Assembly (NCBI GenBank): GCA_964187785.1
Contig: OZ076409.1
Location: 67,768,001 to 67,832,000 of the forward strand
DNA length: 64,000 bases
Origin: Amphiscolops sp. MND2022
Taxonomy: Eukaryota
Direction: 5' to 3'
Shown: positions 46,414 through 49,067 of the stretch, in pieces
Numbering within the stretch: position 1 is the first letter of the stretch
How the letters are laid out: every line of letters begins with the position of its first letter
Translations under genes and position numbers: made by a program
Notes under the pieces: generated by a model
The model's database searches: none
What the model saw: the letters and a program-made list of their open reading frames with translations, nothing else
Told to the model about the DNA's origin: nothing

Positions 46414-47631
46414 ATGAATAATGATTATAAATATTATAGAAATAATGATCAAGGAGTTAGCACGGGAGTTAGCACAGGAGTTGGCACAGGTGATGGAGCT
46501 GGCGCGGGAGCTACCACAGGAGCCAACAAACTGTATTGGTATCAGAAAACACAACTTTATAAAGCAATCACAAATCCCACGTTTATTATATATTTAATTA
46601 TAATTATAGTTATTATTGTTGTAATATACTGGAATTATATTCGCCCCATGTTCTTTAAAAAAATTTATAAAAAACTACTACAATTTGACGGGTTCAAATA
46701 CACTCATCTGACAAACCAGGAAGGTGAAGCTACAATCGAAGAATCCCCACACACAGCATCTCATAGCAACATGCACGAAGCTACACATAGCAACATGCAT
46801 TTCATAATTTATGGTAGTAGTGGCTCTGGGAAGACAAGTTTTTTAAAGCATTATTTAGCACAAGTTCCACGATTTTACGTTGTTTTTGGGCGAGATGAAC
46901 GTGAGTTTCCCTCTCAAAATTTTGTACCACTACTGCAGTTGGAGAAGGTTAATATTGAATTACTTGCTAATAAAATTGTTGTACTAGATGATGCAGGTGC
47001 ATACAAAAGTCTTAAAACAAAAGTAGAAGACTTATTTAGATATGGTAGACACTTGAATATAGTAGTGATATACCTTGCTCACTATGCAAAGGATGTTCTT
47101 CCAGTCGTGAGGGAAAATTGCTTCAAAATATACTTAACAATTAATAACCCAGATAATTTCTTCGAGTCAATTGTACAAACTTATGGGTTCAAAGACGCAA
47201 TTAGGGATGGATTCAATTGGAAATACTACCGTGATCAGTTAGAATTTGGCATTATTGAATTTGACACAAGGAGCCAGAAATACAAGGTATTAAACAACAA
47301 GTACAAGTTAATTTATGATTCGAGCAAACGAAGTGAGTGGAGCCCTGAAGATTATGTTGCTTATGAAAGTTACTTTTTCACTGGTGATGAATACAACAAA
47401 TTGAAGATATTCTTAGAGGCAATGTCCGACCAAACAATTGAAATAACACCACACAACATAGCTTATTATTATGTGTTTTATTGCAAACAAAATAACATTA
47501 AAGTGAATGAATCCAAAATAGACAACTACGTTGAGCGTATGCAAAAACCACTAATTAGTGACTCAGTTAAAGAGAGCTTCAAGAACTTAATTTATGAGCA
47601 TGCAAAAAGTTTTACTAAAAATAAGCTATGA
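46414..47631 (+). CDS. Membrane-anchored A32/FtsK-HerA-like P-loop ATPase (ATPase 1), 405 aa
   Basis: TM segment FIIYLIIIIVIIVVIYW; Walker A YGSSGSGKT; Walker B VVLDD; LFRYGRH; IYLAH; VREN. Confidence 0.88.
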   Translation: MNNDYKYYRNNDQGVSTGVSTGVGTGDGAGAGATTGANKLYWYQKTQLYKAITNPTFIIYLIIIIVIIVVIYWNYIRPMFFKKIYKKLLQFDGFKYTHLTNQEGEATIEESPHTASHSNMHEATHSNMHFIIYGSSGSGKTSFLKHYLAQVPRFYVVFGRDEREFPSQNFVPLLQLEKVNIELLANKIVVLDDAGAYKSLKTKVEDLFRYGRHLNIVVIYLAHYAKDVLPVVRENCFKIYLTINNPDNFFESIVQTYGFKDAIRDGFNWKYYRDQLEFGIIEFDTRSQKYKVLNNKYKLIYDSSKRSEWSPEDYVAYESYFFTGDEYNKLKIFLEAMSDQTIEITPHNIAYYYVFYCKQNNIKVNESKIDNYVERMQKPLISDSVKESFKNLIYEHAKSFTKNKL

Positions 47632-47645
47632 ACTTCATATAATGT

Positions 47646-47990
47646 TAAGTGATTATTTAGTGATTATTTAGTGATTATTTAGTGATTATTTAGTGATTAT
47701 TTAGTGATTAGTGATTATTTAGTAGAACCTTAGTGATTATTTAGTGATCTCTAAATTTCTCTAAGAATCTCTAAATTTCTCACTAAATCACTAAGGTTTC
47801 ACTAAGAGCATTATTTTCACTAAATTTCACTATATTCTCTAATCTTAGAGAAATAAAATACTCTTAGTGAAACCATAGAGATTCTTAGAGATTCTTAGTG
47901 ATTTAGTGAAATTTGCTTAGTGAAACCTTAGTGATTACATAGTGATGCTGAGAGGTATTTAGAGGTATTTAGTGAAACTTTAGTGATTTT
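47646..47990. repeat. Intergenic repeat block: 12-bp AGTGATTATTT(A) tandem plus TTAGTGA/TTAGAGA motifs in both orientations
   Basis: Seen directly between the two ATPase genes. Confidence 0.85.
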
Positions 47991-48011
47991 TTACTAAATA
48001 ATACTAAATAA

Positions 48012-49067
48012 ATGAATTGCTTAATTTGTAATAAAAGTAGTGAAAAAAGTTTATGTGATGATTGCTCTAGTAAAAAAAGATGTAAAGACTGTGAAACTTT
48101 GAAGAATTGTAATACTTTTTATTCATACAAAAATGGTAAAACATACTCTTCATGCATTCAATGTTTTAATAAAAAGGTGAGGTGTGAATTTTGTAATAAG
48201 GAATTAAATAAAAGTTATTTAAGGTCACACATTAAAAAACAACACTATAATCAACAGTATAATCAACACTATAATCAGCATACTGGGGGTGGAGCTCTGC
48301 GCGGGGTTCTGTATGATTTACTTCCGCATGGCTATTCGCGAGAGCTCCCGCATGGCTATTCGCGAGGCACCCCTTCACACAGTAGTAATAATAATAATGT
48401 GGGTGCTAACGCGGGAGCTGTCGCGGAAGCTAACGCGAATAGCCCTGCGGGAGCTAACGCGGAAGCTGTCGCGAACGAAACTAATAGAACATTAATAGTT
48501 GGCCCATCATTTTGTGGTAAGACTCATTTGTTGTTGAATAAATTACGATTGATTCGTTTGGAAGATCCAGAGAAACAAATTCGTATCATTACAAGGAGTC
48601 CGGAACAATATGAGAATATTGATATGCAAGGAATAGAAGTGGAAGAAAATGTGGGGGATTTGGAAGAGTATAGGGGATGTTGTGTAGTATTTGATGATAT
48701 GTTAGACTCCAACCAGAAATTGATTGATCCATTTTTTACTAGGGGAAGACACAAATCTTGTGATGTTTATTATTTATGTCAGAGTTATTTTGATGCACCA
48801 AAAAAGACAGTTAGAAACAATAGTAATATCATAATTTTATTTCAACAAACACTGAAAGATGTAGAACATATTCATAGGGACATATCAGGTTTTGATATGT
48901 CTTATGAGGAATTCAAAAGTTTGTGTAGAGAAGCATGGAACGAAAAATTCAACTACCTTTTAATAAACAGATTGGAAGATAAAAATGGGAGTAGGTACAG
49001 GATTTGTAATGAATCTAATCCAAATTACAAGATCTTTAATCCACAAACTGATCCTTTAAGTAATTAA
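48012..49067 (+). CDS. Packaging ATPase (A32/FtsK-like, ATPase 2) with N-terminal Cys/His zinc-finger region, 351 aa
   Basis: Walker A VGPSFCGKT; Walker B VVFDDM; FFTRGRH; YLCQSYF; VRNNSN; multiple N-terminal CxxC. Confidence 0.93.
   Translation: MNCLICNKSSEKSLCDDCSSKKRCKDCETLKNCNTFYSYKNGKTYSSCIQCFNKKVRCEFCNKELNKSYLRSHIKKQHYNQQYNQHYNQHTGGGALRGVLYDLLPHGYSRELPHGYSRGTPSHSSNNNNVGANAGAVAEANANSPAGANAEAVANETNRTLIVGPSFCGKTHLLLNKLRLIRLEDPEKQIRIITRSPEQYENIDMQGIEVEENVGDLEEYRGCCVVFDDMLDSNQKLIDPFFTRGRHKSCDVYYLCQSYFDAPKKTVRNNSNIIILFQQTLKDVEHIHRDISGFDMSYEEFKSLCREAWNEKFNYLLINRLEDKNGSRYRICNESNPNYKIFNPQTDPLSN

Follow-up and report, generated by a model that had tools for sequence, protein, structure and literature searches.

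The Polinton examined here carries two A32/FtsK-type ATPase genes, one of which (ATPase 1) appears, from sequence comparisons, to belong to an old, separate, and apparently undescribed group of A32/FtsK-HerA ATPases, an accessory subfamily present in some Polintons besides the soluble ATPase (here ATPase 2). The element lies in a 64,000-nucleotide stretch of Amphiscolops sp. MND2022 DNA (contig OZ076409.1, positions 67,768,001 to 67,832,000 of the forward strand), which is called the window below and to which all positions refer unless another contig is named. The two adjacent intact P-loop ORFs proposed in a first-pass annotation were found at 46414-47631 and 48012-49067, 380 bp apart. The central claim of that annotation, that a membrane-anchored FtsK/HerA-type ATPase sits beside a canonical one, was upheld by homologues and by dN/dS values that place the gene under selection, the anchor itself being a prediction. 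The two genes and their parts are as follows.

46414..47631, plus strand: ATPase 1, membrane-anchored A32-like ATPase (405-aa ORF; Pfam; AlphaFold model; anchor predicted)
46576..46638, plus strand: predicted single transmembrane (TM) helix of ATPase 1 (aa 55-75; hydropathy only)
46813..46836, plus strand: Walker A of ATPase 1 (aa 134-141), GSSGSGKT; G139 and K140 in 18/18 covering rows
46987..47082, plus strand: Walker B D192-D193, arginine-finger GRH (211-213), and His sensor (223) of ATPase 1 (alignment)
47320..47631, plus strand: C-terminal helical domain of ATPase 1, an extension of about 100 aa conserved across the subfamily (dN/dS 0.15)
47632..48011, no strand: intergenic spacer between the ATPase genes, 380 bp, rich in AGTGA/TCACT short repeats
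48012..49067, plus strand: ATPase 2, canonical soluble packaging ATPase with an N-terminal zinc-finger unit (351-aa ORF; motifs)
48075..48242, plus strand: C4 + C2H-type zinc-finger unit of ATPase 2, similar to stand-alone zinc-finger genes beside distant anchored ATPases

Every feature previously ascribed to ATPase 1 (the TM helix, here as a prediction from hydropathy, Walker A/B, GRH, YLAH, and a C-terminal extension of about 100 aa) was seen in the ORF. The protein matched Pfam Pox_A32 (PF04665) at 28.4 bits, the cut-off being 22.8, and has the Walker A, the Walker B, the arginine finger followed by a polar sensor, and the RecA-like fold of FtsK-HerA/A32 ATPases. D192, R212, H213, H223, and R233 were invariant in 20 of 20 aligned ATPase 1-family rows, and Walker A/B, the strand-2 Glu, the arginine finger, and the polar sensor were retained down to 23% identity. 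In structure comparisons (Atlas among them), the closest folds were those of STIV B204 and of packaging ATPases of the A32 type, with EssC and Zot also among the matches. Pfam scores against the FtsK/SpoIIIE, VirD4/TrwB, and TraB profiles were far below the cut-off (FtsK_SpoIIIE, E = 0.054; TrwB, E = 0.065), sequence comparison with solved structures gave no match beyond the P-loop, and matches in PHROGs were weak or at the P-loop level only. An AlphaFold model from a deep alignment (mean pLDDT 74.7, with the motor mostly over 90) has one long helix at residues 55-89, joined by a disordered tether to the motor, and ends in a helical C-terminal domain modeled with moderate confidence; this last domain had no usable match in the Atlas search and no known match.

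The sensor that follows the arginine finger in FtsK-HerA proteins is a polar residue, mostly glutamine, according to PMC11703096. The first-pass annotation had noted His in place of the conserved Gln at this position in ATPase 1. By itself it is no sign of repurposing: His was present in 28 of 30 soluble ATPase loci from this genome's other Polinton families (mainly two families). It is therefore a normal variant and was rejected as a mark of inactivation or repurposing.

Next, the anchor was characterized. The 19-residue segment from aa 55 of ATPase 1 has a Kyte-Doolittle mean of 2.84, and downstream of the helix come an amphipathic stretch of basic character and a conserved F-x-G-F motif. 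A hydrophobic segment precedes Walker A in frame in 120 of 121 proteins (that of the window and 120 listed homologues of 282), and the sole exception starts downstream of the segment; the concern that the TM and ATPase parts might be separate ORFs in other copies was thus not borne out among the listed proteins. Within the same genome, 94 of 103 scored copies (of 2220 candidates) had no internal stop, in a sample biased toward intact copies because the best-scoring ones were taken. In a second subfamily of about 65% identity (subfamily B), an ATPase 1 match, partial in some cases, lay upstream of ATPase 2 in 30/30 loci. ATPase 1 of subfamily B begins directly with the helix, which differs in sequence and has a hydrophobicity of 2.30 to 2.42 (9 intact of 20 copies); in a neutral-drift control, which amounts to one evolutionary comparison and not nine, only 46 of 1127 open-frame replicates were equally hydrophobic at the matching distance. 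Since all but one of the 121 listed proteins have anchor and motor in a single frame, and since the pair recurs in subfamily B, we conclude that their association is not due to chance.

Across the wider family, an anchor scoring 2.0 or more was found 34 to 74 residues before Walker A in 26 of 31 rows, some of which are near-duplicates. The length of the tether varied, and no conserved polar residue was present in the helix in the family alignment. Four of the five rows without a strong helix look N-terminally truncated and the fifth, P0380, scores 1.41; the protein annotated in the clam Mactra antiquata is among the five. These rows count against the membrane-tethered motor proposed below, as does the positive-inside charge bias, which is clear only in the window's ATPase 1 lineage.

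Selection was assessed with 46 distinct open copies of ATPase 1 and 40 of ATPase 2, drawn from 60 loci. Codon-model dN/dS values for ATPase 1 were 0.185 (core), 0.152 (C-terminal domain), and 0.389 (anchor and juxtamembrane region), and those for ATPase 2 were 0.150 (core) and 0.172 (zinc finger). The pairwise core value between subfamilies was 0.15 (0.06 to 0.25). In the anchor region, dN/dS within subfamily A was about 1 (0.50 to 2.65), a drift that also weighs against a tethered motor. These values indicate that the motor of ATPase 1 is held as tightly as the canonical one and that the anchor keeps its hydrophobicity more than its sequence. Neutral evolution or decay of ATPase 1, raised at the outset as an objection, was rejected by dN/dS values (0.15 to 0.19) that denote purifying selection like that on ATPase 2.

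ATPase 1 and ATPase 2 are 23% identical (E = 0.055), and an AU test rejected their lineages as sisters (p = 5e-58); the first-pass annotation had described a duplicated ATPase, which, as a local duplicate, is not supported. Placement of ATPase 2 as sister to the whole anchored family was rejected more weakly (p = 0.04), and on that value the two may descend from a very ancient common ancestor. Trees separated the anchored family from 14 soluble Polinton ATPases, ATPase 2 included, by a branch with support of 99/97, or 98 without P0412. This long-branch soluble protein fell inside the anchored clade in the 99/97 tree and was left out of the 98-support tree and the AU test; monophyly of the anchored family is partly by construction, because the family was gathered by likeness to ATPase 1. 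In its anchor and in its position on the other side of the 99/97 branch, ATPase 1 departs from the canonical soluble packaging ATPase found once per element. When 1.84 billion representatives were searched with a profile, 289 proteins were retrieved; among the 150 listed, full-length relatives were 23 to 46% identical and shared the layout of anchor, tether, A32-like motor, and own C-terminal domain. Subfamily members were found in environmental contigs and in a clam genome; in Mactra antiquata, one member was annotated twice, on large scaffolds, without an anchor as called. P0413 combines the C-terminal part of a polymerase with a soluble A32 ATPase, a fusion that may be a gene-calling artefact of a broken copy.

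The host element is an intact Polinton of 15.8 kb, with the long terminal inverted repeats (715 bp), AGTAGT ends, and 6-bp target duplication of a Polinton/Maverick. The end motif is of the type given for Polintons in PMC8097293. Its boundaries and further genes are listed here.

37763..53587, no strand: whole Polinton/Maverick element, 15,825 bp; AGTAGT...ACTACT ends; target-site duplication GCGGTC (6 bp)
37763..38462, plus strand: left terminal inverted repeat, 99% complementary to the right repeat
40141..44007, plus strand: polymerase; EndoVII domain by Pfam; 37% identical to the PF03175-positive polymerase of the metagenomic contig L146
44129..45388, minus strand: Pfam PF21738 match, E = 7e-23
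45501..46379, minus strand: rve integrase (Pfam), divergent from ATPase 1 with a 34-bp gap between them
52888..53587, minus strand: right terminal inverted repeat, 99% complementary to the left repeat

The integrase, DJR capsid, and ATPase genes were recognized by Pfam, and the polymerase was assigned by its similarity to a PF03175 protein, not by a PF03175 match of its own. From motifs and synteny, we take 52386-52805 to be the protease and 50815-52125 to be the minor capsid gene, both without a Pfam match. The element is inserted within a host TRPM-like channel gene, with upstream exons at 31674-33459 (Pfam) and, presumably, a downstream exon at 58194-58478 (motifs only). ORF 39330-40028, which has a long hydrophobic Gly-rich segment and no Pfam match, is a second likely membrane protein of the element, and its counterpart occurs in single-ATPase families too (e.g., L129 7329-7946). 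A GC-rich repeat of 12-bp period, encoding TANA/ANAE-type runs, is inserted in frame in several genes (39864-39914, 49359-49421, and, within ATPase 2, 48405-48473), and its copy number differs between element copies. Of the 37 TAGTGA/TCACTA words in the element, 21 lie in the spacer at 47632-48011, some arranged in tandem and some inverted; they are possible binding sites or a promoter. In subfamily B (L165-L168), the orfA-orfB-capsid-polymerase block differs in order and orientation relative to the integrase from that at 38502-45388 of the window.

The distribution of the anchored ATPase was examined within this genome and beyond it. Among 33 stretches of other Polinton families in this genome, one of which spanned ATPase to polymerase and many others of which were broken or shortened, one soluble ATPase and no anchored one was found. 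These families include some with capsids 38% identical to that of the window, and families without the anchored ATPase are also multi-copy. Absence from the other Polinton families of the genome marks the anchored ATPase as accessory. The Polinton load of the genome is very large, with thousands of first-look candidates, and comprises at least two subfamilies with an anchored ATPase and several single-ATPase families. A metagenome scan yielded four loci with an anchored ATPase, representing about three lineages, three of them on contigs shorter than 3.3 kb. L146, an incomplete contig of 9.1 kb in which neither integrase nor repeats were seen, encodes a capsid-like protein that showed no similarity in BLAST to the window's capsid, a soluble A32 ATPase (E = 7e-13), a zinc-finger protein, the anchored ATPase, and a polymerase, and it alone of the four contigs has a second (soluble) ATPase beside the anchored one. 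L146 and L148 are close kin, and L149 is without the N-terminal part of the anchored ATPase. Short-pattern searches of IMG/VR, prokaryote genomes, phage records, and a first metagenome scan returned no loci, which is not proof of absence.

A Cys-rich zinc-finger gene adjoins the anchored ATPase in 4 of 4 contigs. A profile of seven zinc-finger units from the four contigs, run against 1151 frames, recovered the N terminus of ATPase 2 (E = 1.6e-4) together with its subfamily B equivalents. ATPase 2 proved canonical and zinc-finger-fused as first described, with GPSFCGKT, VVFDD, RGRH, LCQ, and the Cys-rich N terminus all present; at 22.3 bits, it fell just under the Pox_A32 cut-off of 22.8. Counting against the tethered motor, half of the zinc-finger unit was found in L140, an element without an anchored ATPase, and the first half was found in ORFs 3764-4462 and 8696-9478 of L129, from a single-ATPase Polinton family. 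These two L129 ORFs, which have no Pfam match, we take to be HNH-like.

The reading that we favor, although we place it a little short of an even chance, is that ATPase 1 is a DNA motor tethered to a membrane, that it works on the genome of the element, and that the zinc finger serves as its adaptor. The N-terminal helix would insert as a signal anchor, leaving the motor cytosolic or nucleoplasmic, and this one predicted helix would tether the protein to a host inner membrane (ER or nuclear envelope). Placement on the cytosolic or nucleoplasmic face, and not in a pore, is suggested by the single generic helix, the basic stretch (in this lineage), and the tether of variable length; variation in the anchor, too, is more in keeping with tethering than with pore formation. 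Packaging, egress, and cell-to-cell DNA transfer, the roles proposed in the first-pass annotation, are candidate functions only. Subunits would oligomerize into a ring-shaped DNA motor; an active ring is suggested by the retention of every catalytic motif, including the arginine finger, which acts in trans on the neighboring subunit (PMC11703096). At that membrane, the ring may grip, move, or hold the linear genome of its own element, whether in the course of replication, of nuclear transit, or of transfer to the packaging ATPase. The DNA-side adaptor of ATPase 1 would be the zinc-finger protein, and in the window's lineage the fusion of that protein to ATPase 2 would couple both motors, with ATPase 2 remaining the capsid-filling motor. 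ATPase 1 itself is unlikely to fill capsids, since it is found with unrelated capsid modules that come with an ATPase of their own, and since relatives lack it. PMC11703096 and PMC7617512 link viral motors of the FtsK/HerA class to the transfer of DNA across lipid membranes; DNA may not be the sole substrate of ATPase 1, since other FtsK/HerA members transport proteins or power assembly (EssC, Zot).

ATPase 1 could instead be the membrane portal of a virion with an inner lipid membrane. In the role of PRD1 P20/P22 (and P6), it would nucleate the packaging vertex and build a ring, mixed or stacked, together with ATPase 2. The gene adjoins the packaging ATPase here, both ATPases are present in both elements with context, the arginine finger of ATPase 1 is kept, and PRD1 packaging uses an external ATPase and a conduit that crosses the membrane (PMC4267777). 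We consider this role unlikely, since the family occurs with two unrelated capsid and ATPase types and is absent from Polinton families with capsids 38% identical to the window's, so that ATPase 1 does not track the capsid module; the variable tether and the helix devoid of a conserved polar residue also argue against it. The PRD1 vertex (ATPase P9, P6, conduit P20/P22) resembles ATPase 1 in having an FtsK-type motor at a membrane (PMC4267777). In PRD1, however, anchor and motor are separate essential proteins, whereas ATPase 1 is one chain encoded by a gene that is dispensable across Polinton families.

A factor directed at the host or at competitors, acting in membrane remodelling, protein export, or interference with co-infecting viruses or rival Polintons and having no role on its own DNA, is also improbable. 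It would account for the patchy, mobile distribution typical of accessory genes, the unique C-terminal domain, and the protein-handling EssC and Zot among the fold neighbors, and several membrane-active accessory genes are described for adintoviruses in PMC8502044. However, the nearest folds and the Pfam match are DNA-packaging ATPases and the recurring neighbor is a zinc-finger protein. Conservation down to 23% identity is likewise unlike that of a fast arms-race gene.

VirD4 and Streptomyces TraB have an anchor-linker-motor architecture, with a membrane segment, a linker, and a pumping ATPase in one chain, and the layout of ATPase 1 resembles theirs. It also resembles that of FtsK/SpoIIIE and inovirus gp1/Zot (for FtsK and M13 gp1, see PMC11703096). 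ATPase 1 differs from all of these in its single N-terminal helix, its A32-type DD Walker B, and its lack of a gamma domain. A translocase of the TraB type, forming a pore through which the naked Polinton genome moves between cells or into the germ line, would fit this layout and the element's very high copy number (2220 candidates, of which 103 were scored), but it is distinctly unlikely: one generic, sequence-variable helix makes a poor pore, the element keeps full capsid genes, and families without an anchored ATPase are multi-copy as well. Finally, adjacency, shared strand, and shared Pfam family might suggest that ATPase 1 arose from ATPase 2 by a recent tandem duplication and is decaying or has a hydrophobic N terminus by accident; this is ruled out, to within a negligible probability, by the 23% identity, the AU test (p = 5e-58), the purifying selection, and the anchor kept in distant relatives.

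The A32-like ATPases of Polintons/adintoviruses, virophages, and Nucleocytoviricota (PF04665; FtsK-HerA superfamily) share with ATPase 1 the fold, Walker A/B, arginine finger, and polar sensor, and ATPase 1 is likewise located in a Polinton. It differs in its N-terminal anchor, tether, and C-terminal domain and in being a second copy of separate ancestry. Known viral FtsK-HerA members are described as a motor domain only, without N-terminal anchors (PMC11703096), one ATPase is described per Polinton (PMC8502044, PMC8097293, PMC11071308), and, in the text searched, duplicate capsid genes are noted but duplicate ATPases are not (PMC11071296). No description of a second or anchored Polinton ATPase was found in the literature searched, whose supplements and genome maps could annotate one, nor did that literature yield a report that two-ATPase Polintons are common, as the first-pass annotation had allowed they might be. 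Judged by the literature searched, the viral FtsK-HerA ATPases thus include an apparently undescribed anchored subfamily that elements carry as an accessory module.

It is possible, if somewhat doubtful, that the mobile two-part module of anchored pump and zinc-finger adaptor provides some animal Polintons with a membrane-crossing route for their DNA, at the nuclear envelope or into a lipid-containing particle. It would then be a eukaryotic-virus counterpart of FtsK/TraB and the first sign of an active membrane step in Polinton life cycles, no such step having been found described in the literature searched. Pox_A32 matches, which are used as single-copy Polinton markers, can be the anchored paralogue. 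A conserved, mobile, anchored second motor is also a small and concrete protein for probing at what sites, and in what way, Polinton DNA comes into contact with host membranes.
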